64,000 nucleotides of DNA, taken from assembly GCA_039915925.1 (NCBI GenBank), contig JBDSMG010000073.1, forward strand, positions 14,902 to 78,901, in the 5' to 3' direction. The notes beneath the pieces were generated by a model. The model saw only the letters and a list, made by a program, of their open reading frames with translations, had not been told where the DNA came from and ran no database searches. This DNA is from Sphingomicrobium sp. (GTDB lineage Bacteria; Pseudomonadota; Alphaproteobacteria; Sphingomonadales; Sphingomonadaceae). Below are positions 49,401-60,535 of the stretch, in pieces (position 1 is the first letter of the stretch; each line of letters starts with the position of its first letter). Both the position numbers and the translations under genes were made by a program.

Positions 49401-51683
49401 GTGACATTCAAGAACCGCCGTCGACTTGCCACCTTCGCGCTGCTGCTGGCGGCAGCATCGGCGCCGGCAATCGCACAGACTGCCGCGCGGCCGTGGCTGA
49501 ACCTCGCACTTACCGCCGATGAGCGTGCTTCGCTCGCCGTCGCGCAAATGACGCGCGACGAAAAACTGTCGCTGGTGTTCGGCCTGTTCGCGACCAACGC
49601 GGAATATAAGAACGGCTACCGGGCGCCGAAGGAAAGCCGCTACGGCTCAGCCGGCTTTATCCCTGGCATTCCGCGCCTTGGCATTCCGCCGCAGTGGCAG
49701 ACGGACGCCGGCGTCGGTGTCGCGACGCAGGGTGGCGCGGACAAGAAGCGTGAGCGCACGTCGCTTCCCTCAGGCATTGCGACCACCGCGACCTGGGATC
49801 CGGAAACAGCGTTCGCGGGCGGCCGGATGATCGGATCCGAAGCGCGCTCTTCGGGTTTCAACGTCATGCTTGCGGGCGGCGTCAACCTGCTTCGCGACCC
49901 GCGCAACGGCCGGAATTTCGAATATGGCGGCGAGGATCCGCTGCTTGCCGGCACTATGGTCGGCGCGCAAATCGCGGGCATCCAGTCGAACAACATCATT
50001 TCGACGATCAAGCATTATGCCCTCAACGATCTCGAAACCGGGCGCTTCGAGCATGATGCGCGGATCAACCGCGGCGCGGCACGCATGTCCGACATGCTGG
50101 CGTTTCAGTTCGGCTTCGAGCGCGGCAATCCCGGGTCGGTGATGTGCGCCTACAACCGCGTGAACAGCGAATATGCCTGCGAGAACAGCTGGCTTCTGAC
50201 CGACCTGCTGCGCAACCAGTTCGGCTTTCAGGGCTATGTGATGTCCGACTGGGGCGCGACCCACAGCACGGAGAAAGCAGCGCTTGCGGGCCTCGACCAG
50301 GAGTCCGGCTGGCCGTTCGACGACAAGCCCTATTTCCGTGAACCACTGGCTGCGGCTGTTGCCGCCGGGCGTGTACCGGAAGCGCGGCTAAATCAGATGG
50401 CGGGTCGAATCCTTCGTTCGATGTTCGAACATGGCGTGATCGACAAGCCCGTGGCGGAGGGCCCGATCGACTTTGCGGCGCATGCGGGGGTGACTCGGCA
50501 GGACGCGGAGCAGGCGATCGTGCTGCTGCAAAACAGGAATAATGTGCTTCCGCTGGCGGCGTCAGCGAAGCGGATCGTCATCATCGGCGGTCATGCTGAC
50601 AAGGGTGTTCTTGCCGGCGGCGGCTCGTCCCTGACCTATCCGGTCGGCGGTAATGCCGTGCCGGGAATTGCACCTACAGGCTGGCCGGGACCGGTACTCT
50701 ATGATCCATCCTCGCCGATGAAGGCCATTCAGGCGCTCGCGCGGAACGCGACCGTGACCTACGTCGACGGTGCCGACCCGGCCGTGGCCGCGCGTGCCGC
50801 CGCTGGTGCCGACGTCGCTCTGCTGTTCCTGACTCGCTGGGAAGGAGAATCGTTCGACGTTCCGATGGGCCTGCCCGACAAGCAGGACGCCTTGGTGGAC
50901 GCGGTTGCAGCGGCCAACCGCAACACTGTCGCGATTCTCGAAACCGGCGGGCCTGTGCTGATGCCGTGGTCCAATCGCGTGGCTTCGATCCTGGAGGCCT
51001 GGTACTCCGGTACATCCGGCGGTGAAGCGATCGCCAATGTGTTGTTCGGAAAGGTCAATCCGTCGGGGCACCTGCCAGTGACTTTCGCGGCGAGCGAAGC
51101 GCAGCTGCCACGCCCGGTTCGTCCCGGCACCGGGCTGCCCGAAAAGCAGATGTTCGCGATCGACTATAATGAGGGCGCCGCGGTCGGATACAAATGGTTC
51201 GACGCGCGCGGCATCCAGCCCCTGTTCCCGTTCGGGCACGGCCTCAGCTACACGAGCTTTGCGATGAGCCGGCTTAGCGCAGCGCCGACGCAGGATGGCG
51301 GAGCAACGGTCAGCTTCACGGTCCGCAACACCGGCAAGCGCCGTGGCGCCGAGGTCGCGCAGGTCTATGCCTCGCCCGTGAACGGCGGCTGGGAAGCGCC
51401 GAAGCGGCTGGCCGCCTTCAGCAAGGTCGATCTTGCGCCAGGGCAGTCGAAGCGGCTGACCCTCAGCGTCGATCCGCGCCTGCTCGCCACTTTCGACGAA
51501 GCGAGCAACAGCTGGGTAATCGGCGGCGGCGCCTACAAGCTGATGCTTGGCGCTTCGGCGCGGGAGCTTGGAAGCTCGACCACGATCCAGTTGCTGGCGA
51601 GGACTCTGCCCGGCAATTGGCGCCCGGGCGCTGCGGCCGCAACGGCACCGGCCGCCGGCTCGGTTGTGCCGGAGCGCGGCTAA
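49401..51683 (+). CDS. GH3 beta-glucosidase/xylosidase, signal peptide, C-terminal Ala/Pro tail ending PERG
   Basis: RDPRNGRNFEYGGEDP, TIKHYA, VMSDWG, WEGESFD, FnIII (AEVAQVY); ends ...PAAGSVVPERG. Confidence 0.92.
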   Translation: MTFKNRRRLATFALLLAAASAPAIAQTAARPWLNLALTADERASLAVAQMTRDEKLSLVFGLFATNAEYKNGYRAPKESRYGSAGFIPGIPRLGIPPQWQTDAGVGVATQGGADKKRERTSLPSGIATTATWDPETAFAGGRMIGSEARSSGFNVMLAGGVNLLRDPRNGRNFEYGGEDPLLAGTMVGAQIAGIQSNNIISTIKHYALNDLETGRFEHDARINRGAARMSDMLAFQFGFERGNPGSVMCAYNRVNSEYACENSWLLTDLLRNQFGFQGYVMSDWGATHSTEKAALAGLDQESGWPFDDKPYFREPLAAAVAAGRVPEARLNQMAGRILRSMFEHGVIDKPVAEGPIDFAAHAGVTRQDAEQAIVLLQNRNNVLPLAASAKRIVIIGGHADKGVLAGGGSSLTYPVGGNAVPGIAPTGWPGPVLYDPSSPMKAIQALARNATVTYVDGADPAVAARAAAGADVALLFLTRWEGESFDVPMGLPDKQDALVDAVAAANRNTVAILETGGPVLMPWSNRVASILEAWYSGTSGGEAIANVLFGKVNPSGHLPVTFAASEAQLPRPVRPGTGLPEKQMFAIDYNEGAAVGYKWFDARGIQPLFPFGHGLSYTSFAMSRLSAAPTQDGGATVSFTVRNTGKRRGAEVAQVYASPVNGGWEAPKRLAAFSKVDLAPGQSKRLTLSVDPRLLATFDEASNSWVIGGGAYKLMLGASARELGSSTTIQLLARTLPGNWRPGAAAATAPAAGSVVPERG

Positions 51684-52681
51684 ACGGACTGAAGGGGCGG
51701 CAGCGACAAGCGCCGCCCCTCCCGAGCGCTCTCCTTTGCAAGCGCGATGAGGGCCATTACGTCCCGCGCGTCTCGCGCGCTCACCGGGACAGGAGCGCCG
51801 TCGAGGATCGCATCGGCGACGCCTTCATAGAAATCGAGGTAGCGGCCGCGCTCGCTCGGGACTGTGCGGCGATTTCCGTCGGCTCCCGTCAGGCTGCCAT
51901 CATTTGCGTCACGGCCATAATCGGCAGCCAGCGGGTTGGCGCCGCCCTTCAACGCTTCCTCCTGTGTGTCCAGCCCGTATTTTACGAAGCTGCCGCGATC
52001 TCCGTGGATCGCGAAGCGGGGGCGCGCGTCGGCGACCAGGCTGGAGGAGCCGAGCACCGCGCGCATTTCGCCATAGTGCATGGTCAGTTCGAAATAATCG
52101 TCGACGCGGCTGCCGGTGCGTTGCGCCGCCACGTCGGCGCTGACCGATCCCGGCTTCCCGAACAGTTGCACGACCTGGTCGATCAGGTGTGGGCCGAGGT
52201 CGATCAGCACGCCGGTGACTCCGTCGGGCTGCTCCTTCCATCCTTCGCGTAAGGCTGGCCGAAAGCGGTCCCAATGGGCGGAGTAGAGTTTGACCTCGCC
52301 AAGTTCGGGCAGGACCTTGCGCACCGTGAGGAAGTCGCTGTCCCAACGCCGGTTGTGAAACACCGTCAGCTTCAACGCGCATTCGTCCGCCAGCGCGATC
52401 AGCTGATCGGCTTGTTCGACGGTCGCGGTGAAGGGCTTGTCGACCACCACATGCTTGCCAGCCTCGAGCGCCGCTTTCGTGATGTCGAAATGAGTCGCGT
52501 TCGGCGAGGCGACGACGATCAGGTCGGATCGCTGCAACAGAGCGTCGAGGCTCGGCACGGCGTCCGGTATGTCCCGCGAGGTCATGACGCCGCTGATCTG
52601 CATGCGGCCGCATGCCCGGATCAGCGGCGCGTGGAAGTTGGCGCCGGCGAGGCCGTAGCCGACCAGGCCGACGCGGATCAT
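51680..52681 (-). CDS. Gfo/Idh/MocA family oxidoreductase (YdgJ-like)
   Basis: VGLVGYGLAG, ASPNATH, HVVVDKPF, FHNRRWDSDF, DLGPHLIDQ. Confidence 0.9.
   Translation of the reverse strand: MIRVGLVGYGLAGANFHAPLIRACGRMQISGVMTSRDIPDAVPSLDALLQRSDLIVVASPNATHFDITKAALEAGKHVVVDKPFTATVEQADQLIALADECALKLTVFHNRRWDSDFLTVRKVLPELGEVKLYSAHWDRFRPALREGWKEQPDGVTGVLIDLGPHLIDQVVQLFGKPGSVSADVAAQRTGSRVDDYFELTMHYGEMRAVLGSSSLVADARPRFAIHGDRGSFVKYGLDTQEEALKGGANPLAADYGRDANDGSLTGADGNRRTVPSERGRYLDFYEGVADAILDGAPVPVSARDARDVMALIALAKESAREGRRLSLPPLQSV
51693..51720. terminator. Hairpin at convergent GH3/oxidoreductase junction
   Basis: AGGGGCGGC...GCCGCCCCT 9 bp stem, 10 nt after the GH3 stop; no clear U-tract. Confidence 0.35.
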
Positions 52682-52685
52682 GTCC

Positions 52686-55217
52686 TTATTGCGCGCCGCA
52701 CTGCGTCTGCGGCACGGTCGCGCTGATAACCCGGACGTCCGAGATGGCGAGCGCGAGTTGGCCTGCCGTTTCCATCAGAAGAGGGGTCGTTAGCTTCGCC
52801 GGGTCGAACGGGCTGCTGCCGGCCGGCTTCGGCGTGAAGCACCCAAGCGGCAGGGTCATTGTCTGCCACTGCCCGACGGGCGCCGAGCGAAGCACGCCCG
52901 TGATTGGAACCGAAACACCGCTGTCCGGGCCAGACTGCACGTTGAGGGTCACCGGAGCAGTCGGCTTTTTGTCGACGCGATAGTCGATGACCAGGCTCAA
53001 CTGGCCGGTAAATTCGCGGCTGAGATCGACCGGCTGGCTCGACCGGATCGCCACCGCCGCCGGACGGTTGCCCGGCCAGGTGAACGCCCGTGAGTCTTCC
53101 TGCGCGCGCCGGTCGACACCGCGGACCTGCCCGCCGTCACCGACGAAGCCGAAGGTCGAGCCCTCCGAAGTCGCTCCGCGGCCGAACAGCACGCCTTCGG
53201 GCAATCCGCCACCGGCCGGCCGTTCCTCGGACAGCTGCGCCAACTCGTCGGACTGCCCATACCGAAGGCCATAGCCATAGGCGAATAGCGGGTCGTAGCC
53301 AGGATCGCCGACATTGAGCGGCGTCTGGTCCGCGCGCTTGGGCCAGGAAAAGCTGAGCTTGCCGTTGAAGTCGTAGTTGGTGCTACCGTCCGCCTTGCGG
53401 AACAGCACGTCGGCAATCCCGGCACCTTCGCTTCCGGGCAGGAAGGCCGCGACGAACGCGTCGGAGGCGTTGATCTCTGGGTTTACCCAGAGCGGTCTTC
53501 CCGAGAGAAATACGGACACGACCGGAATGCCCGCTTTCCGCAGGCGGCGAAGAAGGTCGAGATCCTTCTTGTCCGCTGGGCTGAACTCGAGCGAGCGCGG
53601 ACGGTCGCCGACGAACTCGGCGTAGGGGTCCTCGCCGAACACGACAATCGCGACGTCGGGCTTCCGCCTGTACTTCCCATCGACGCTGAATGTCGTGCGT
53701 CCGCCGGCAGCGCGCGCGGCTTCCTGAATGCCCGAGTAGATGGTCTGCGCGTTGTGGAAGTCGGAATTCTTGAGCCCGGCGCCTTGCCAGGTGATCGTCC
53801 ATCCGCCCGATTGTTTGCCGAGATTGTCGGCGCCATCACCCGCCACGAGGATATTCGCCTGCGGGCGAAGCGGGAGCAGCTGGTTGCTGTTCTTCAGCAG
53901 CACAAGCGACTTGCGAACCGCTTCGCGTGCCACGGCTCTGTGCTCGGGCGCACCGAGAAGCTGGAACTGCCCGCCGAATGGGCGCGCCGACGGCTTCGGC
54001 TTCTCGAACAGACCAGCCCGAAGCTTCACTCGAAGAATGCGCCGCACGGCGTCGTCGAGCCGCGTCTGCGGGATGACGCCGGATTGGACCTCGCGAAGCG
54101 TGTTCTCGTACAGGCCCTTCCAGCTGTCGGGGGCCATATACATGTCGAGGCCGGCATTGATGGACTGCGGGCAGTCGGTGTTGCTGCAGCCGGGAACCTG
54201 CCCGTGTGCGTTCCAGTCGCCGACGACGAATCCGTTAAAGCCCATGTCTTCCTTCAGCGCTCCGGTCAGCAGGTCGCGGTCGCCGTGGACCTTTACTCCA
54301 CGAACGGAGGAGAAGCTCGCCATCACCGACTGCACGCCGGCCTCGATCGCCGGAGGATAACCCGCGCCGTGGATGTCGCGCAGCTGCTCGGGCGTGGACG
54401 GATTGTCGCCCTGGTCCTTGCCGTCCGCGGTTCCGCCATCGCCGACGAAATGCTTGACCGTGCCCACCACTCGGCCCGGCCCCATAAACTCCGGCGTTCC
54501 GGCACGGCCCTGCAAGCCTTCGATCATGCGCGGCGCATAGGCGCGCACGACTTCGGGGTTTTCAGAGAAGCTCTCATAGCTGCGGCCCCAGCGATCGTCG
54601 CGAGCAACGGCGATGGTGGGCGAGAAATCCCATTCGAGCCCGGTAACCGTCATCTCCTTGGCCGTGACTTCGCCGATCCGCCGGATCAGTTCGGGGTCAC
54701 GCATCGCGCCAAGGCCGACGTTCTGCGGGAAGATGGTGGCGCCCGGTACGTTGGCGTGCCCGTGCACCGCGTCGATGCCGAAGATCGGCGGAATCTTCTC
54801 GCCGGCCCATTGCGCGCTGTTGGCCGCTTCCCAGAAGGCGTCGGCAAGCTTCAGCCAGTCGGCGCCGGTCGACTTGATGTCCTCGCCATTCGGCGCCGAA
54901 TTGCCGCCCGCCAGGATCGAGCCGAACTTGTACTTCCGCATATCGTCGGGAGTGACTGCCGCGATGTCAGGCTGGATCGTCTGGGCGACCTTTTCCTCGA
55001 CCGACATGCGCGAGATGATCTGCGTGATGCGCGCTTCCATCGCCGGATCGATCGCGACGCGGCTCTGCACGGCCGGCCAGCGGTCGGTACGCTCGGCAAC
55101 CACTGGAGCGACCGGCACGGGCTCGGTCACCGCAACAGGTACAACCGGCGGCGGCGTCACCGCACAGCCGCTGGCGAGCAACCCGACGAGAATTACGTTC
55201 AAACGCTTCGGCGACAT
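52686..55217 (-). CDS. GH3 exo-beta-glucanase-like lipoprotein with ExoP-type C-terminal domain
   Basis: From ATG 55217: LLASGC lipobox; GIDAVHGH, RWGRSYESFSE, VKHFVGDGGT, VVGDWN, GEDPYAE; C-terminal RRAQEDS...WQT galactose-binding-like domain. Confidence 0.88.
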   Translation of the reverse strand: MSPKRLNVILVGLLASGCAVTPPPVVPVAVTEPVPVAPVVAERTDRWPAVQSRVAIDPAMEARITQIISRMSVEEKVAQTIQPDIAAVTPDDMRKYKFGSILAGGNSAPNGEDIKSTGADWLKLADAFWEAANSAQWAGEKIPPIFGIDAVHGHANVPGATIFPQNVGLGAMRDPELIRRIGEVTAKEMTVTGLEWDFSPTIAVARDDRWGRSYESFSENPEVVRAYAPRMIEGLQGRAGTPEFMGPGRVVGTVKHFVGDGGTADGKDQGDNPSTPEQLRDIHGAGYPPAIEAGVQSVMASFSSVRGVKVHGDRDLLTGALKEDMGFNGFVVGDWNAHGQVPGCSNTDCPQSINAGLDMYMAPDSWKGLYENTLREVQSGVIPQTRLDDAVRRILRVKLRAGLFEKPKPSARPFGGQFQLLGAPEHRAVAREAVRKSLVLLKNSNQLLPLRPQANILVAGDGADNLGKQSGGWTITWQGAGLKNSDFHNAQTIYSGIQEAARAAGGRTTFSVDGKYRRKPDVAIVVFGEDPYAEFVGDRPRSLEFSPADKKDLDLLRRLRKAGIPVVSVFLSGRPLWVNPEINASDAFVAAFLPGSEGAGIADVLFRKADGSTNYDFNGKLSFSWPKRADQTPLNVGDPGYDPLFAYGYGLRYGQSDELAQLSEERPAGGGLPEGVLFGRGATSEGSTFGFVGDGGQVRGVDRRAQEDSRAFTWPGNRPAAVAIRSSQPVDLSREFTGQLSLVIDYRVDKKPTAPVTLNVQSGPDSGVSVPITGVLRSAPVGQWQTMTLPLGCFTPKPAGSSPFDPAKLTTPLLMETAGQLALAISDVRVISATVPQTQCGAQ

Positions 55218-55265
55218 GCAACCTCTCCCGGAATACCCGTCATGCGGGCTTGACCGAATGCTTAT

Positions 55266-55279
55266 TGGTAACGCTATCA
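55266..55279. promoter_or_regulatory. LacI-family operator TGGTAACGCTATCA
   Basis: Divergent GH3/GH5 intergenic region. Confidence 0.75.
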
Positions 55280-55309
55280 CCGCACAAGAAGGATAGAGGG
55301 AGAATCCTG

Positions 55310-56317
55310 ATGGCTCGGTTCCGTTGGATCGCCGCGGTTGCGGCATTGATCGTCAGTGCATGCACTCCATTAGCACTCGAGCGCCCTGCGGCCTCAGCGA
55401 CTGCGGTCAGCGCGATGCAGTTCAAGCGCGGCGTCAACGTGCTGGGGTACGATCCGTATTGGACCGATCCTTCGAAGGCGCGATTCCAGTGGCGGCACCT
55501 TGCCGAGATTAAGCGTGCCGGGTTCGACCACGTTCGGCTCGTGGTGTTCGCTTTCAAATTCATGGACGCGCAGAACCGGCTCGACACCAAGTGGCTCGAG
55601 CGGCTCGATGCGGCGGTGCGGGAAGCCCAGGCGGCTGGGCTCGGCGTGATCGTCGACGAACATGATTTCGACACCTGTGCCAAAGACGTGCCCGCGTGCC
55701 GCGTAAAGCTTCCGGCCTTCTGGCGGCAGATCGCGCCGCGCTATGCGAGTGCGCCCGACAGCATCGCGTTCGAGCTGCTCAACGAGCCGCACAAGGCGCT
55801 CGACCCGGTCTGGAACGACATGCTTGCGGAGCTTCTCGGAATCGTTCGCCAGTCGAACCCGACGCGCACGGTCGTCGTCGGCCCCACAAGCTGGAACAGC
55901 TTCCACAATCTTCCGACGCTCCGGTTGCCCGAAGGTGACCGCAATCTGCTCGTGACCTTCCATTATTACGATCCCTTCCGCTTTACCCACCAAGGGGCGA
56001 GCTGGACGGACATGGTTGGACTGCGCGGCGTGACCTTCGGAAGCGAGGCCGATCTGGCGCAGATCCGCAAGGACTTCGACGAAGTCGCCGCGTGGGCGCG
56101 GGCGAACAACCGTCCGATCCTGCTCGGTGAATTCGGCGCCTATGACAAGAGCGGAACGCCGATCGAGATGCGTGCGGCCTACGCGAACGCCGTCGCCCGC
56201 GAGGCGGAGCTCCACGGCTTCGGCTGGGACTATTGGCAGTTCGACAGCGATTTCATCGTCTGGGACATGCAGAAGAACGGCTGGAATGAGCCAATCCTGA
56301 AGGCTCTGATCCCCTAG
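55310..56317 (+). CDS. GH5 endoglucanase-like lipoprotein (subfamily 25-like)
   Basis: From ATG 55310: IVSAC lipobox; FELLNEPH, TFHYYDPFRFTHQGASW, LLGEFGAY, YWQF. Confidence 0.87.
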   Translation: MARFRWIAAVAALIVSACTPLALERPAASATAVSAMQFKRGVNVLGYDPYWTDPSKARFQWRHLAEIKRAGFDHVRLVVFAFKFMDAQNRLDTKWLERLDAAVREAQAAGLGVIVDEHDFDTCAKDVPACRVKLPAFWRQIAPRYASAPDSIAFELLNEPHKALDPVWNDMLAELLGIVRQSNPTRTVVVGPTSWNSFHNLPTLRLPEGDRNLLVTFHYYDPFRFTHQGASWTDMVGLRGVTFGSEADLAQIRKDFDEVAAWARANNRPILLGEFGAYDKSGTPIEMRAAYANAVAREAELHGFGWDYWQFDSDFIVWDMQKNGWNEPILKALIP

Positions 56318-57363
56318 CCGCGTTCGCCCCGCGAGAAGAACGTCGGGCGGTGCGCCGGCGTCCCGCGCGTCTTGGTCCGGACGGACGCGAGCATGTCGGA
56401 CGAGGTCATGAAAAGCGTGTGCCCGTCGGGTCCGCCGAACGTCACGTTGGCGGTCGCCTTGCCTGTCGAGATGCGGCCGAGCTCCTTTCCCGAAGGCGCG
56501 AAGACGTGCACTCCGCCCGGACCGGTCGCGAAGATGTTGCCGTGCTGGTCGACGGTCATCCCGTCAGGCAGGCCAGGCAGACCTTGTGCGACCAGCTTCG
56601 TCATGTCCGAGAAGACGCGGGCTCGCGACACCGTGGCGCCGTTGACGTCATACGCCATGATGATCGCGCGCTTCGGGTCGGACACCGCAACATAGAGGGT
56701 CTTTCCGTCCGGCGAGAGCGCAAGGCCGTTGGGGAAGGTGAGGTCCGGAACAGCCAAGCTGATGCTGCCGTCGGGGGCGAGACGATAGACGCCGTTGACC
56801 GGCTGCTCCTTCAGCGGAGAGTCGTTGATGCCTTCGAGGCCGTAAGGCGGATCGGTGAACCAGATTGCGCCGTCCGCAGTGACCACAACGTCGTTCGGCG
56901 AGTTGAACCTTTTGCCGTTGAACCGGTCCGCGAGAATGCGCTTGGCCTTGGTCGCGAGATTGATGGCGACGACGGCGCGGCTGCCATGATCGGCCGCAAG
57001 GATCTCGCCCGAACCTCCCGGTTTCAGTCCATTGGTGCCTGGCTCGCGGAACCCGGGTTTCGCTGGCCCATTGCCCCCTGCAGGCTCCATCCACACCGAG
57101 AAACCGTCGCGTGCGCTCCATTTGTGGATCCTGTTGCCTGGGACGTCGCTCAGCAGCACATATTGCCCGTCGGCGATCCAAACCGGTCCCTCCGACCATT
57201 GCATGCCGCCGCCGAGCTTCTGGATCGGCGCATGTGCGTCGATCAGCCGGTCGAGCGCAGGCGCGGTTCGCACGATCTGGCTTCCCGGGATCGTGGTCAC
57301 AATCGGTGCTGCTCCGGTGAGTGAAAGGAGGAGGGCGGCGGCGAGGATGCGGGTGCTTTTCAT
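56314..57363 (-). CDS. Exported SMP-30/gluconolactonase family protein ending GERG
   Basis: Signal peptide; WSEGPVW, FNSPND, WFTDPPYGL, PNGLALSPD, LPDGMTVD; ends ...RPTFFSRGERG. Confidence 0.9.
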   Translation of the reverse strand: MKSTRILAAALLLSLTGAAPIVTTIPGSQIVRTAPALDRLIDAHAPIQKLGGGMQWSEGPVWIADGQYVLLSDVPGNRIHKWSARDGFSVWMEPAGGNGPAKPGFREPGTNGLKPGGSGEILAADHGSRAVVAINLATKAKRILADRFNGKRFNSPNDVVVTADGAIWFTDPPYGLEGINDSPLKEQPVNGVYRLAPDGSISLAVPDLTFPNGLALSPDGKTLYVAVSDPKRAIIMAYDVNGATVSRARVFSDMTKLVAQGLPGLPDGMTVDQHGNIFATGPGGVHVFAPSGKELGRISTGKATANVTFGGPDGHTLFMTSSDMLASVRTKTRGTPAHRPTFFSRGERG

Positions 57364-57402
57364 AGGCCGCGGAGAGTTGCCGCATTCGCCGCCAAGAGCA
57401 AG

Positions 57403-58008
57403 TCAGCTGTTCGTCGTAAGACGCTTCAGCTTGTCGAGTGCTGCTGAATCCGCTTCGTCGGGAGCGATGGTCGATTGGAAATCGCCATGCCGATCGAACA
57501 AGAGCACGGTCGCCGTGTGGTCCACCGTGTAGGCGCCGTTCTCGCCCGGATGCTTCTCGGAGAAGATGCCGAACTTTTTATTCACCTGCGCAATCTGCTG
57601 CGGACTTCCCGTAAGGCCGATCACGGGTGAACCGAACAGATCCACATAATTGCGCATCTCGGTCGGGCCGTCGCGCTCCGGATCGACCGTCACGAAAAGG
57701 ATCGCGAACGGCTGCTTGCCTGCGAGTTGCTGCCGCAGCCGGACGAGGCGGGCGAGGGTGGTCGGGCAGACGTCCGGGCAATGGGTGAAGCCGAAGAAAA
57801 TCGCATATGGTCGGCCGGCGAGGCTGCGGCTGTCGAACGGCAGTGCGTCCGTACCGACTAGCGTGAACGGCCCGCTCAGCTTGATCGCGGACGCCTGTTC
57901 TTGGTCCGGGAGTGGCTGCGAAAGCCGCTCGCGAAAGAGCAGCAATGCACCCGCGGCGATCAGCACCAGCGCGACCAAGATCCAAAGAACGAGCCTGAGG
58001 CGTTTCAC
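57403..58008 (-). CDS. SCO1/SenC copper chaperone
   Basis: N-terminal TM helix, FFGFTHCPDVCPTTL, VDPERD, YTVDHT. Confidence 0.93.
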   Translation of the reverse strand: MKRLRLVLWILVALVLIAAGALLLFRERLSQPLPDQEQASAIKLSGPFTLVGTDALPFDSRSLAGRPYAIFFGFTHCPDVCPTTLARLVRLRQQLAGKQPFAILFVTVDPERDGPTEMRNYVDLFGSPVIGLTGSPQQIAQVNKKFGIFSEKHPGENGAYTVDHTATVLLFDRHGDFQSTIAPDEADSAALDKLKRLTTNS

Positions 58009-58466
58009 AGCTTAGTGCCATGCGCGTGGCTGGACGCGTTCGCTTCGCCGACCTGGACTTGCACCTGCTGCTCGGGCGATTTCTCGAACCGAAGCGTGAT
58101 CAGGAAGCTCGTTCCGGCCCGGAGTGGTGCACGAAGGCCCTCAAGCATGATGTGCGTGCCGTTTGGTTTCAGTTCGACGGTCGAATGCGGCGCAACGTCA
58201 AGCCCGCCGTCGAGCGAGCGCATCCGCATAACACCGCCCTCCATTGACGATTCGTGAAGCGAGGCCCGCGCGCCGTCGCCAGTGTGTACGGACAGCAGTC
58301 GATCGCTCGCCGCGCCGCGATTTACGATGTTCAGGTAGACCACGGCCGCCTGTTCGCGCGCTGCCGTCGGGCGGCTCCATGCCTTGTCGGCGCCGACATC
58401 TGGCTCGGACGGCGGGCTGCAGGAGGCGGCGAGAATCAGCAGAAGGAGAGAGGCTCGGCACTTCAT
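58005..58466 (-). CDS. Copper chaperone PCu(A)C, lipoprotein
   Basis: From ATG 58466: LAASC; SLHESSM..VMRM, LKPNGTHIML; GTGA overlap with SCO. Confidence 0.88.
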   Translation of the reverse strand: MKCRASLLLLILAASCSPPSEPDVGADKAWSRPTAAREQAAVVYLNIVNRGAASDRLLSVHTGDGARASLHESSMEGGVMRMRSLDGGLDVAPHSTVELKPNGTHIMLEGLRAPLRAGTSFLITLRFEKSPEQQVQVQVGEANASSHAHGTKL

Positions 58467-58477
58467 GCGGCGCCGAT

Positions 58478-58518
58478 AAAAGAAAAACCCCGGACGAGCC
58501 ATGGTCTCGTCCGGGGTT
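58478..58518 (-). terminator. Rho-independent terminator after the beta-barrel gene
   Basis: AACCCCGGACGAG-ccatggt-CTCGTCCGGGGTT 13 bp stem, followed by TTTCTTTT on the minus strand. Confidence 0.85.
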
Positions 58519-58549
58519 AGTTTTCACTCCCTTGTGAGGAGTAGCTGTT

Positions 58550-59422
58550 TTATCCGCGCTCAGGCGCCGGCGGCGGCGGCGGCGGCGGCGGAGGCGGAAC
58601 CGGGCACGCATCCGTTGCCAGGATCACCGAGCCGTCCGGGCACGTCTGCGTCGCAGGAGGCGGCGGAGGCGGCGGGGGCGGAGGCGGCGGCGGAGGCGGA
58701 GGAGGAGGCGGCGGCGGAGCGAAGTTGTAGATCAAGCTCGCCAGCAAGCTGTGCGACTTGAAGTTCGTCCGATAGTCGAAGCCGTGGCCCATCACGTCGT
58801 TCTTGAGCGTGCCGGCGGAGAAGTAGCGATACTTCACGCCTGCATCGAGAGTCGGCGTGATGGCGGTGCGGACGCCGGCGATTATCTGCCACGCGAGGCG
58901 ATCAGTATCACGCAGGTGGTAAGCCGAGTCACCGATCTGATCGACGGTCTGGCTGACCCGTGCCGGACCAACGCCGCCACCAGCATAGAAGCTGGTGCCG
59001 TTTTCGTCGCCGAGATCAACCAGCGCGTTCACCATCAGACTCGTGACACTCGTGCGGCCACCGCCGTCGACGGTCACGCCTGGCCCCGTGCCTGCAGGAA
59101 ACAGACCGGCAGCCTTCGGATCGATGTTATACTCTTTGTGACGCGAGCGCTTGCGAGCGAGTTCGCCTTCCAGACGGAACATGCCGAAGTCGTACCCGGC
59201 GATGAGGTCCGCGTCGTAACCGATCTTGTGATCGATCGACAGCCAATCGCCCCAATCCGGGTAGCGCGTTGTCGCCGTCAGCGGGAAGTTGCGACGGTCG
59301 ACGTTTGAGTTCTTGGCGATCAGAGCGCCAAGCTCCGCGCCAACGTAACCGGAACCGTCGCGAGCCATTGCAGGTGAAGCAATGGCAGCGGCGGCTACGG
59401 CGGCGAGTAATAGTATTCGCAT
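58550..59422 (-). CDS. Outer-membrane beta-barrel protein (OmpA transmembrane-like) with polyproline tail ending PERG
   Basis: Signal peptide ...SPAMA; GYVGAELG, GYDFGMFRLEGEL, FYAGGGVG, LDAGVKYRYF, last strand LIYNF; then P21-ATQTCPDGSVILATDACPV-P10-APERG. Confidence 0.85.
   Translation of the reverse strand: MRILLLAAVAAAAIASPAMARDGSGYVGAELGALIAKNSNVDRRNFPLTATTRYPDWGDWLSIDHKIGYDADLIAGYDFGMFRLEGELARKRSRHKEYNIDPKAAGLFPAGTGPGVTVDGGGRTSVTSLMVNALVDLGDENGTSFYAGGGVGPARVSQTVDQIGDSAYHLRDTDRLAWQIIAGVRTAITPTLDAGVKYRYFSAGTLKNDVMGHGFDYRTNFKSHSLLASLIYNFAPPPPPPPPPPPPPPPPPPPPPATQTCPDGSVILATDACPVPPPPPPPPPPAPERG
58568..58717 (-). repeat. Two coding CCN trinucleotide runs (21 and 10 Pro codons)
   Basis: 58655-58717 and 58568-58597, mixed CCG/CCT/CCC codons counted from the sequence. 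Confidence 0.9.
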
Positions 59423-59821: not shown

Positions 59822-60535
59822 ATGTTGGTTCGACTGCGAAAATCTCGTCGGCGCGCAGTGCTGGTGCCTGCAGCCTGCTTAGTCTGCGCGTGGCCTGCAG
59901 AGGGCCAGGCGGTGCCGGCGCCGACGATTTTGCTTCCTGGCCCGGAAACGCTTCCGGCCGGCGACGATGAGCATTTTCGCAGCCACATGTTGTCATGGTC
60001 AGGCGCGAAGCTGGTACGCGGGCAAGTGAAGGAGGCATTCGAAACCACCCGGGCACAGCGCCTGTATATTTCATCGCCGTTCGGATGGCGGAGCGATCCT
60101 ATCAAAGGGATTCGGCGACGGCACGACGGTGTCGACCTGCCCGGCCGGTTTGGAACGCGGGTCTATGCGACCGGAGCAGGAGTGGTAACGTTAGCACGCG
60201 TTGCGGGTGGTTACGGCAATTTGGTCCAAATTGATCATAGCGATGGAGTGAGAACGCGTTACGGCCATCTTTCTCGAATTCTCGTGAGCGAAGGTATGGT
60301 GCTTCGCCCCGGAAGTCTGATCGGCGAGGTGGGCTCTACCGGGCGGTCGACTGGACCGCACTTGCATTATGAGGTGCGGGTCGACGGCAGGCCGGTCGAT
60401 CCGCTGCGTTTCATGGGTCAAACCGTGCCGCGCTACGAGACGACCTGGACTCCCGATCTGCCCGTGACGCGCAAGTGGGCGGGATGGGAAACAATCGGTA
60501 CTGTGGCAAGTTTGCCTCAGGCACGGATTCGTTAA
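59822..60535 (+). CDS. M23 family metallopeptidase
   Basis: ISSPFGWRSDP, HDGVD (HxxxD), GYGNLVQIDH, TRYGHL, STGRSTGPHLHYEV. Confidence 0.9.
   Translation: MLVRLRKSRRRAVLVPAACLVCAWPAEGQAVPAPTILLPGPETLPAGDDEHFRSHMLSWSGAKLVRGQVKEAFETTRAQRLYISSPFGWRSDPIKGIRRRHDGVDLPGRFGTRVYATGAGVVTLARVAGGYGNLVQIDHSDGVRTRYGHLSRILVSEGMVLRPGSLIGEVGSTGRSTGPHLHYEVRVDGRPVDPLRFMGQTVPRYETTWTPDLPVTRKWAGWETIGTVASLPQARIR

Follow-up and report, generated by a model that had tools for sequence, protein, structure and literature searches.

A lineage-specific C-terminal ERG tag on exported proteins of Sphingomicrobium and its possible role in peptidoglycan tethering

The window analyzed here, a stretch of 64,000 nucleotides from Sphingomicrobium sp. 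(contig JBDSMG010000073.1), carries three genes for exported proteins that share the same C-terminal end (Table 1). According to the initial annotation, these open reading frames close with (P/G)ERG directly before the stop codon, and all three were confirmed as described. The GH3 enzyme, whose N-terminus reads MTFKNRRRLATFALLLAAASAPAIA, ends in ...SVVPERG (codons CCG GAG CGC GGC TAA), the SMP-30 protein in ...FFSRGERG (GGC GAA CGC GGC TAG) and the outer membrane protein (OMP) in ...PPAPERG (CCT GAG CGC GGA TAA). As the three ends are encoded by differing codons, they do not represent a repeated DNA element. The tag trails the folded domain in each protein, as had been claimed, with Pfam matches stopping before the tail: the Fn3-like match of the GH3 enzyme finishes at residue 720 of 760 and the SGL match of the SMP-30 protein at residue 322 of 349, while the barrel of the OMP (PF13505, E = 8e-12), with ...HSLLASLIYNF as its final strand, finishes at about residue 218-234 of 290. 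The extension that follows the barrel consists, in order, of A-Pro21, the two-Cys loop ATQTCPDGSVILATDACPV, Pro10 and APERG. No further gene of the window ends in ERG, in agreement with the statement that no cytoplasmic protein in it does, and the earlier estimate of about 0.02 ERG ends expected in the window was of the right order of magnitude.

Table 1. Positions in the window of the three ERG-tipped proteins and their C-terminal tails
Feature	Position	Strand	Details
GH3 beta-glucosidase-type exported enzyme, 760 aa, signal peptide	49401..51683	+	ORF; Pfam Glyco_hydro_3, Glyco_hydro_3_C, Fn3-like
GH3 C-terminal tail GAAAATAPAAGSVVPERG	51627..51680	+	ERG codons 51672-51680; stop 51681-51683
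SMP-30/gluconolactonase-family exported protein, 349 aa, signal peptide	56314..57363	-	ORF; Pfam SGL residues 56-322
SMP-30 C-terminal tail, residues 323-349, ...RTKTRGTPAHRPTFFSRGERG	56317..56397	-	ERG codons 56317-56325; stop 56314-56316
OMP beta-barrel, eight-strand-type, 290 aa, signal peptide	58550..59422	-	ORF; Pfam OMP_b-brl residues 6-218
OMP post-barrel periplasmic extension, 56 aa	58553..58720	-	ERG codons 58553-58561

A crude gene call of the genome to which the window belongs yielded 2,405 genes. ERG termini are found on 11 of these roughly 2,405 proteins, compared with 1.7 expected from position-specific residue frequencies or, with internal occurrences of ERG as the basis, 1.1 (Poisson P ~2e-6), and background frequency, which would have refuted the proposed signal, is not what this genome displays. 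Nine of the 11 carry a signal peptide or lipobox, versus 38% of all genes (Fisher P = 0.004), so the enrichment among signal-peptide proteins that had been suggested as a check is present, with the caveat that the exported share rests on a lax signal-peptide heuristic. These nine proteins comprise four OMP barrels, a TonB receptor, the GH3 enzyme, the SMP-30 protein, a DUF4142 lipoprotein and a small secreted protein. Since five of them share one paralogous tail module, the number of independent exported families is about five. Other xRG ends tested in the same genome were not enriched among exported proteins.

Conservation in orthologues constitutes stronger evidence than these window and genome counts. 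A GERG end follows a variable linker in 22 of the 24 closest SMP-30 orthologues (at least 63% identity); more distant SMP-30 homologues have other C-terminal ends. The DUF4142 lipoprotein retains the ERG tip in all ten orthologous species, and among the 120 best GH3 homologues, 79 have a tail of about 17 aa ending in ERG plus zero or one residue, the tail-less homologues finishing at a conserved ...NWRP. For the OMPs, about 72 of 80 species have the tip; their tail module gave 1,588 database matches, and among the best 120 of these, 95 close with ERG itself and about 22 run on for one or two residues more. TonB-dependent receptors also carry the tag. The spacer ahead of ERG varies among orthologues while the tip stays, codons at the E, R and G positions vary synonymously, and about 6% of OMP tails have Val in place of the Glu. 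Neither cytoplasmic ERG end of the window genome, on the other hand, is kept in orthologues, as judged from a second genome of the genus. Given this retention despite variable linkers and synonymous changes, and the loss in cytoplasmic orthologues, selection evidently maintains ERG on exported proteins as a peptide tag. A lack of conservation in orthologues, another outcome that would have spoken against the signal, was thus not encountered for the SMP-30, DUF4142, GH3 or OMP families. In its behavior, the tag corresponds to a short linear motif ending a flexible or rigid spacer.

These data already disfavor the notion, which we find hardly credible, that the ERG ends have no function and stem from chance, from composition or from a tail cassette spread by recombination among paralogues. 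The ERG test was post hoc, and the single module behind five of the nine exported cases could have spread by gene conversion. However, the same tip occurs in four non-paralogous families with unrelated linkers and persists across 10-80 species per family in spite of linker and codon variation, which chance or gene conversion does not account for, nor do the unconserved cytoplasmic ends and the absence of export bias for other xRG ends fit this explanation.

Plain ERG is accompanied by ERGR, ERGL, ERGGL and similar ends, and ERG and ERGR were found on one contig. The last residue of tagged tails is Gly, or Arg, Leu, Gln or others after Gly, corresponding to a register shift of zero to two residues. 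Consequently, the ERG-stop motif of the initial annotation stands as a conserved tag but not as a literal C-terminus, since one or two extra residues are tolerated. Such variable residues suit a leaving group better than a carboxylate-anchored ligand. Among 61 genera of the family sampled, the ERG-tipped module occurs only in Sphingomicrobium, the GTDB genus of the window, and in one other genus (g79), which bears out the earlier idea of a lineage-specific signal. (P/G)-E-R-G(-x) is a previously undescribed, lineage-specific C-terminal tag of exported proteins. Sphingomicrobium is a soil genus.

Scans of the ERG tails against Pfam and NCBIfam gave no match and no CTERM model, no transmembrane helix trails the motif, and a sortase (PF04203) is absent from the window genome and present in one of 15 other Sphingomicrobium genomes; the initial view that the tag matches no known C-terminal sorting signal therefore holds. 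LPXTG/sortase, PEP-CTERM/exosortase and GlyGly-CTERM/rhombosortase systems resemble it in that a near-C-terminal motif on unrelated exported proteins is followed by a dispensable leaving segment, and sortase cleavage between Thr and Gly, before the Gly, recalls the Arg-Gly cleavage proposed below. In contrast to ERG, which is followed by only zero to two residues, sortase-type signals have a transmembrane helix and a basic tail after the motif, and the compartment of ERG, the Gram-negative periplasm, is a different one. An LPXTG/sortase substrate was rejected because the tails stop without a hydrophobic segment and the window genome has no sortase, and a PEP-CTERM/exosortase substrate, which would combine a PEP motif with a helix and an Arg-rich cluster, for want of both the helix and a CTERM model.

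Braun lipoprotein Lpp and OutB-type tags are joined to meso-DAP by YkuD L,D-transpeptidases (LDTs). They are comparable to ERG in being very short C-terminal motifs of envelope proteins, without a transmembrane helix and with LDTs implicated, and one LDT tag likewise accepts a residue beyond the key position (Lys-Thr in Legionella Lpg1810; PMC12729407). The presence of YkuD genes in the window genome meets one requirement for such an acceptor tag. The other is failed: Lpp and OutB-type tags provide a Lys epsilon-amine as acceptor, whereas no Lys is found in the last ten residues of the nine exported ERG proteins.

The OMPs permit comparison with relatives that lack the tag. Orthologues in nine other genera (39-47% identity to the window OMP) consist of a barrel, a polyPro hinge, in some cases with Cys loops, and an OmpA_C domain; those of Sphingomicrobium and g79 consist of a barrel, polyPro, a Cys loop, polyPro and ERG. 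PF00691 (OmpA_C) does not match the ERG-tailed OMP of the window, and an HMM built from the outgroup OmpA_C domains matches none of the four ERG-OMPs of the window genome. The ERG tail occupies the OmpA_C position in orthologous barrels. Only two OmpA_C proteins are encoded in the window genome, joint-lowest among the 61 genera, and neither is a barrel fusion. OmpA-family tethers and ERG-OMPs have in common the PF13505 barrel, a Pro-rich hinge with two-Cys beads and the periplasmic C-terminal position, but the former carry an OmpA_C domain of about 110 aa where the latter have a four-residue tip. Moreover, the tip extends to proteins without any OmpA_C ancestry, namely TonB receptors, a lipoprotein and soluble enzymes.

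Because the tag stands where relatives have a cell-wall-binding domain, we infer that its likeliest role is to tie exported proteins to peptidoglycan, perhaps through mimicry of the stem peptide. This is the reading we favor, albeit tentatively and with somewhat less than even confidence, as tethering, mimicry and covalent chemistry are each inferred. The initial annotation had likewise pointed to peptidoglycan, naming periplasmic retention or docking as alternatives and placing the partner elsewhere in the genome; support for the peptidoglycan direction is circumstantial only, coming from the OmpA_C replacement, from the expansion of YkuD and from the YkuD or OmpA_C genes that neighbor ERG-OMP genes, as described here. 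Phylogenetic profiling for a co-occurring transpeptidase, as had been advised, revealed that YkuD copies peak in both ERG genera (11 in the window genome and 10 in g79, ranks 1 and 2 of 61, versus a median of about 3-4); five further Sphingomicrobium genomes have 6-10 copies. As only four domain families were tested for expansion, this signal is hypothesis-driven and not proteome-wide. One YcbB-like LDT subfamily has six copies in the window genome and four to five in g79, while the remaining sampled genera have two at most and usually none. Speaking against the link, a further genome, G140, has ERG-OMPs, yet contains only one copy of this subfamily and six YkuD genes in total.

Where ERG-OMP genes adjoin YkuD genes, three layouts occur: in about 22 species the OMP gene converges on that of a long LDT, in five species the two genes are co-directional, and a divergent layout exists as well. 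In favor of a link with the tag, no YkuD gene was found next to OmpA_C-type OMP loci in outgroups and no OMP gene next to outgroup relatives of the LDT. Against it, no YkuD gene lies within 1.5 kb of the g79 ERG-OMPs, and adjacency of the DUF4142 gene and a YkuD gene is present in the window genome but not conserved. Because common descent explains part of the synteny conserved in a single genus, only about three to four independent events are represented.

As for the mechanism, the ERG tip would be an encoded mimic of the stem tetrapeptide, with a small residue or Pro standing for L-Ala, Glu for D-iGlu, Arg for meso-DAP and Gly for D-Ala. Arg would resemble meso-DAP in its three-methylene arm with a cationic end group, and Gly is achiral. 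With a Pro/Ala-rich spacer ahead of it, and placed at the periplasmic end of barrels, TonB receptors, a lipoprotein and soluble enzymes, the tip would be handled by proteins that recognize stem peptides, the expanded YkuD LDTs being the main candidates. LDTs release residue 4 of their tetrapeptide donor, and exchange of D-Ala4 for Gly is known. A YkuD enzyme may cut the Arg-Gly bond, so that Gly leaves together with any one or two residues behind it, and join the Arg carbonyl to a free meso-DAP amine of the wall. That the tagged protein becomes an LDT acyl donor in precisely this manner is possible but rather unlikely. As the tails lack Lys, action by an LDT would require the protein to serve as acyl donor, a role without precedent: in known LDT attachments the protein is always the amine acceptor, via Lys or its N-terminus, and never the acyl donor (review PMC12729407). 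Additionally, the Glu of the tag is alpha-linked and L, while D-iGlu is gamma-linked, which argues against mimicry, as do the OMP tails with Val at this position. If the mechanism were true, it would represent sortase-like covalent anchoring in the Gram-negative periplasm without a sortase or a membrane-spanning signal, a route serving barrels, lipoproteins and soluble enzymes alike that replaced OmpA_C-type tethering in the genus.

By analogy with Brucella, the LDTs could instead have the x-Asp N-termini of the ERG-OMPs as their targets. The citing review describes OMP barrels of Brucella and Agrobacterium as joined to peptidoglycan via an N-terminal x-Asp (Godessart et al. 2021, cited in PMC12729407); these are LDT-tethered alphaproteobacterial barrels of the same broad family. 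The predicted mature N-termini of the ERG barrels read RDG... or QDS..., sequences that are compatible with such attachment without showing it and that recur in OmpA_C-type outgroup OMPs. A link of this kind is made through the N-terminal amine, independently of any C-terminal tail, leaving ERG on soluble enzymes and the OmpA_C replacement unexplained.

Some ERG-OMP genes lie directly upstream of a gene for a stand-alone secreted OmpA_C protein (four species and G140), the co-directional pairs being operon-like with gaps of 16-91 bp. Such OmpA_C proteins could bind the ERG tip without a covalent bond. Their pairing in at least five species favors non-covalent docking, in which a periplasmic or inner-membrane partner binds ERG without cleavage or wall attachment, so as to form a complex or set periplasmic depth; the PG-binding domain of LDTs or an unidentified receptor are further options for the partner. 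The likeness of the tag to a short linear motif ending a spacer is in line with docking, as is the inference that the polyPro rods are long enough for much of the periplasm. We nevertheless consider docking unlikely, though it cannot be dismissed: the variable register (ERG, ERGR, ERGGL) is unusual for carboxylate pockets such as PDZ domains, none of the ERG genes of the window genome has an OmpA_C gene beside it and OmpA_C proteins are scarce there, and a receptor candidate confined to the two ERG genera did not emerge.

Bacteria are known to use C-terminal tags for directing proteolysis, as in the case of tail-specific proteases. The zero to two residues past ERG suggest trimming, and a periplasmic protease or carboxypeptidase might recognize ERG for maturation or lifetime, leaving location unaffected. 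Such a processing or turnover signal is improbable, however, as tail-specific proteases favor non-polar ends and a degron leaves unexplained both the replaced PG-binding domain on abundant structural OMPs and the rigid polyPro spacer (20 + 10 residues). A PDZ-ligand or tail-specific-protease tag was rejected in view of the non-fixed register, the non-hydrophobic Gly end and the lack of expansion of S41 tail-specific proteases, of which the ERG genera have two and one (family range 1-6); this last point also weighs against a turnover signal.

Finally, a sugar-utilization locus encodes the tagged soluble proteins, which are carbohydrate-active enzymes, and TonB receptors are tagged too, as might be expected of a signal for export, surface display or vesicle cargo that places glycosidases beside TonB-dependent receptors. 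We regard this as very improbable. The C-terminus of outer membrane barrels faces the periplasm, so the tag on OMPs and TonB receptors is periplasmic; no secretion-system gene is linked to the tag, and both the exchange of OmpA_C for the tail and the neighboring YkuD and OmpA_C genes point to the wall and not to the surface.

All three reading frames of the window from which the initial annotation had inferred a tag, encoding a GH3, an SMP-30 protein and an outer-membrane beta-barrel protein (OMP), are present and end, as it had stated, in Glu-Arg-Gly (ERG) directly followed by a stop codon. Their terminal codons differ (CCG GAG CGC GGC TAA for GH3, GGC GAA CGC GGC TAG for SMP-30 and CCT GAG CGC GGA TAA for the OMP), so the common feature is the peptide and not a DNA repeat. 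Synonymous variation was also found at all three codons of the tip in 71 OMP loci (GAG/GAA; CGC/CGT/CGG/CGA; GGC/GGT/GGG/GGA). A shared DNA or RNA element, that is a repeat or terminator read through as ERG, was rejected because codons and stops differ both in the window and over these loci. According to Pfam, the last folded domain ends well ahead of the tail: the Fn3-like domain of GH3 extends to residue 720 of 760, the SGL domain of SMP-30 to residue 322 of 349 and OMP_b-brl to residue 218 of 290, the last strand of the barrel (...SLIYNF) ending at 234. No Pfam or NCBIfam model covers the three tails.

Features discussed in the text. G000, genome of the window; G140, chromosome of a second Sphingomicrobium species; L, OMP loci or contigs from other genomes.
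Feature	Source	Coordinates	Strand	Remarks
GH3	window	49401-51683	+	ends ...AAGSVVPERG-stop
Second exported GH3	window	52686-55346	-	lipoprotein, ...TQCGAQ
Exported GH5-like cellulase	window	55250-56317	+	
SMP-30 protein	window	56314-57363	-	ends ...PTFFSRGERG-stop
SCO1/SenC gene and PCu(A)C-type copper chaperone gene	window	57403-58502	-	between SMP-30 and OMP genes
OMP barrel	window	58550-59422	-	ends ...PPPPAPERG-stop
M23/LytM-type peptidase	window	59822-60535	+	signal peptide; peptidoglycan endopeptidase family
OmpA_C protein	G000	C37:19659-20132		
OmpA_C protein	G000	C12:20783-21724		
ERG-OMP gene, then secreted stand-alone OmpA_C gene	G140 (L045); also L229, L257, L277, L280	C1:892937-894421		same strand; OmpA_C protein with own signal peptide
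YcbB-like LDT	G000	C44:8135-9478		
YcbB-like LDT	G000	C44:61634-63010		
YcbB-like LDT	G000	C14:67182-68681		
YcbB-like LDT	G000	C1:53997-55436		
YcbB-like LDT	G000	C16:90074-90790		
YcbB-like LDT	G000	C5:41358-42155		

The assembly to which the window belongs (G000; 2.79 Mb, 75 contigs, 64% G+C) was annotated with our own codon-usage gene caller, which called 2,405 genes, accounting for 86% of the sequence. Eleven of these genes encode an ERG C-terminus, where residue frequencies by position predict 1.7 and the rate of internal ERG predicts 1.1 (Poisson P about 2e-6); counted genome-wide, such ends thus lie above background, as the proposed signal implied. A signal peptide or lipobox is clear in nine of the 11 proteins, namely a TonB-dependent receptor, the GH3, the SMP-30 protein, four OMP_b-brl paralogues, a DUF4142 lipoprotein and a 126-aa secreted protein, while the remaining two, a PurB-like lyase and a 97-aa protein, are cytoplasmic. 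Since a single module (polyPro, ATQTCPDGSVILATDxCPV, polyPro, xERG) is common to five of the nine, the exported proteins represent approximately five independent families. A general xRG tag was dismissed, as xRG ends without Glu are not enriched on exported proteins in this genome; PVRG in place of PERG nevertheless occurs in the OMP tail of five species, making Arg-Gly the most invariant part of the motif. A census of ERG-stop over genomes by DNA pattern was dropped as too noisy, the pattern GARCGNGGNTRA giving 42 matches in G000 and only nine of the 11 genuine ERG ends having a TRA stop.

Decisive evidence for an ERG tag, as judged from sequence comparison, comes from its conservation in orthologues. 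GERG ends 22 of the 24 closest SMP-30 homologues (at least 63% identity), with the preceding 10-15 residues varying; more distant homologues have other endings. Likewise, all ten DUF4142 orthologues (at least 50% identity, from ten Sphingomicrobium species) close with a Pro-rich stretch and GERG, which the DUF4142 paralogues lack. For GH3, 79 of the best 120 homologues carry a tail of ~17 residues after a conserved ...NWRP, ending in [G/P/A]ERG plus zero or one residue (ERGR being commonest, then ERG, ERGL, ERGQ and ERGE), and the rest stop at NWRP; ten named genomes, where the search gave only tail-less or non-orthologous GH3 copies, added little. The OMP module has 1,588 matches in the protein database; of the best 120, ERG closes 95 and is followed by one or two more residues in about 22. 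A survey of 80 OMP loci (GTDB species representatives) found ERG ends at 58, two of them tandem ERGERG; a single residue follows ERG at 13 loci, ERGQRG occurs at one and PVRG at five. Tandem or nested OMP tips are seen in some species (VERGERG, AERGERG, VERGERGR, VERGERGQ and VERGQRG; loci L206, L269, L276, L208 and L205). On one syntenic metagenomic contig, the GH3 ends in ...QERGR and the SMP-30 protein in ...GERG, indicating that the cell tolerates both registers. Of the originally claimed C-terminal tag, the motif therefore stands but its strictly terminal position does not, given ends such as ERGR and ERGL. Together, these data demonstrate a near-terminal motif under selection, [P/G]-[E, rarely V]-R-G, carried by exported proteins at the end of a spacer that faces the periplasm.

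The entire G140 chromosome (2.24 Mb), from a second Sphingomicrobium species, was also analyzed. Two OMPs and two TonB receptors retain the ERG tail there. Both cytoplasmic ERG proteins of G000 have orthologues there without it, and the tagged soluble enzymes have no orthologues in this chromosome, so that tagging of soluble proteins is confined to part of the genus. A survey of 200 genomes of the order found the ERG-tipped module in all six sampled Sphingomicrobium genomes and in practically no others. When 61 genera of the family were each sampled by one genome, it was confined to Sphingomicrobium and one further genus (g79), in which two proteins end in ...PPPTPRGERG. Conservation, the bias towards exported proteins and the two-genus range support the main points of the earlier proposal of a lineage-specific signal on exported proteins. 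Cultured members of Sphingomicrobium include strains named as Sphingomonas (S. sediminicola DSM 18106, S. edaphi DAC4, S. cremea G124 and S. arenae); the first three carry the tag, so that the idea of tethering is directly testable.

In nine other genera, the orthologous OMP consists of a barrel, a polyPro hinge and a peptidoglycan-binding OmpA_C domain, with a similar two-Cys loop in the hinge in three of them (g8, g27 and g82). In both ERG genera, polyPro and ERG stand where OmpA_C stands in these orthologues. G000 encodes two OmpA_C proteins, the joint-lowest number among 61 genera (others 2-10); they are not fused to barrels, and they do not clearly resemble a typical Pal lipoprotein. In this 98.9%-complete assembly, Pal may be missing, divergent or located in a gap. 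At four of the 80 loci and in G140, a stand-alone secreted OmpA_C gene lies 16-91 bp downstream of the ERG-OMP gene, as though an ancestor combining barrel and OmpA_C had been divided into two separately exported proteins. These operon-like pairs favor a non-covalent alternative, docking of the tip into OmpA_C or a different partner, which ranks close behind the covalent donor reading considered below.

Four candidate partner families, not all protein families, were tested: sortases, S41 tail-specific proteases, OmpA_C and the YkuD L,D-transpeptidases (LDTs). No sortase gene was found in G000, ruling out sortase-type processing, and S41 tail-specific proteases are not expanded (G000 has two and g79 one; family range 1-6). 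YkuD LDTs, on the other hand, number 11 in G000 and 10 in g79, the two highest counts among 61 genera (median about 3-4), and 6-10 in five more Sphingomicrobium genomes. A YcbB-like subfamily is present in six copies in G000, 4-5 in g79 and 0-2 (mostly none) elsewhere; G140 has a single copy of the expanded subfamily. The canonical S-H-G-C motif of the active site is often altered in these YcbB-like proteins, with Asn, Ser, Gly or Ala in place of the His, one of the residues that position the donor in LdtMt2. This variant was discarded as an indicator of new donor specificity, since single-copy members in non-ERG genera have it too.

Gene order also pointed to LDTs. About 22 of the 80 ERG-OMP loci have a long S-N-G-C-type LDT gene in convergent orientation, 100-360 bp past the OMP stop codon, and at five a YkuD gene follows 190-280 bp downstream in the same orientation; a divergent arrangement occurs in four Sphingomicrobium genomes and at one of the 80 loci. 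No YkuD gene adjoins the outgroup OmpA_C-type OMP loci, nor do LDT relatives in the outgroups have an OMP gene beside them. Because neighbours within a genus are in part inherited together, only about 3-4 independent events remain. The YkuD gene adjoining the tagged DUF4142 gene in G000 is missing at all nine orthologous loci and was taken as coincidence. We conclude that the ERG motif takes the place of a wall-binding domain and that co-occurrence and synteny connect it with stem-peptide-recognising proteins.

Wall tethering with stem-peptide-handling partners, a function inferred and not assayed, is a tentative reading to which we give somewhat less than an even chance. The tip would imitate the stem tetrapeptide L-Ala-D-iGlu-mDAP-D-Ala and thereby tether its carrier to the wall; against such mimicry, the Glu of the tag is an alpha-linked L-Glu. 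That the tethering is covalent, with the tagged protein as LDT acyl donor, is again inferred chemistry and in our judgment rather unlikely. The periplasm contains no ATP and the tail no Lys, which leaves transpeptidation with the protein as donor as the only plausible covalent route. Cleavage of the Arg-Gly bond would release Gly and zero to two further residues, and a DAP amine would then receive the acyl group. The variable residues trailing ERG are compatible with a leaving group, and LDTs are able to exchange D-Ala4 for Gly. LDTs release residue 4 of tetrapeptide donors; however, in all known LDT-protein links the protein is the acceptor, which speaks against the donor reading (PMC12729407).

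By its sequence features, the tag would act like a tethering signal, yet it fails the membership tests of every known family considered. Unlike LPXTG and PEP-CTERM tails, ERG tails have no transmembrane helix and no accompanying sortase; they lack the Lys of Lpp/OutB tags, ERG-OMPs lack the OmpA_C domain of the OmpA family, and the ERG register varies, in contrast to PDZ-type ligands. Within the literature that could be searched, no description of a Glu-Arg-Gly C-terminal tag or of protein-donor LDT reactions was found. The tip would belong with short C-terminal envelope-tethering tags, and there is a realistic chance of categorically new chemistry. To our knowledge, Gram-negative links from outer membrane or periplasm to the wall are known for a few lineages only (Lpp, Pal, OmpA and the N-terminal OMP links of Rhizobiales). 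Here, as a natural experiment, one genus exchanged OmpA_C for a four-residue tip and reused it on soluble enzymes. If a tether, the tip would be the shortest known portable tag for periplasmic retention or wall anchoring, with uses in periplasmic display and enzyme immobilisation; if LDTs use it as donor, the known chemistry of a family relevant to beta-lactam resistance would be widened.

Within the sugar-utilisation locus of the window, a second exported GH3 and an exported GH5-like cellulase have no ERG tail, indicating that tagging is selective and not general to exported enzymes here. The SCO1/SenC and PCu(A)C pair also follows SMP-30 in two syntenic contigs (L202 and L203), both of which lack the ERG-OMP and continue with GtrA and glycosyltransferase genes. 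The M23/LytM-type gene lies ~400 bp from the start of the ERG-OMP gene, on the opposite strand.
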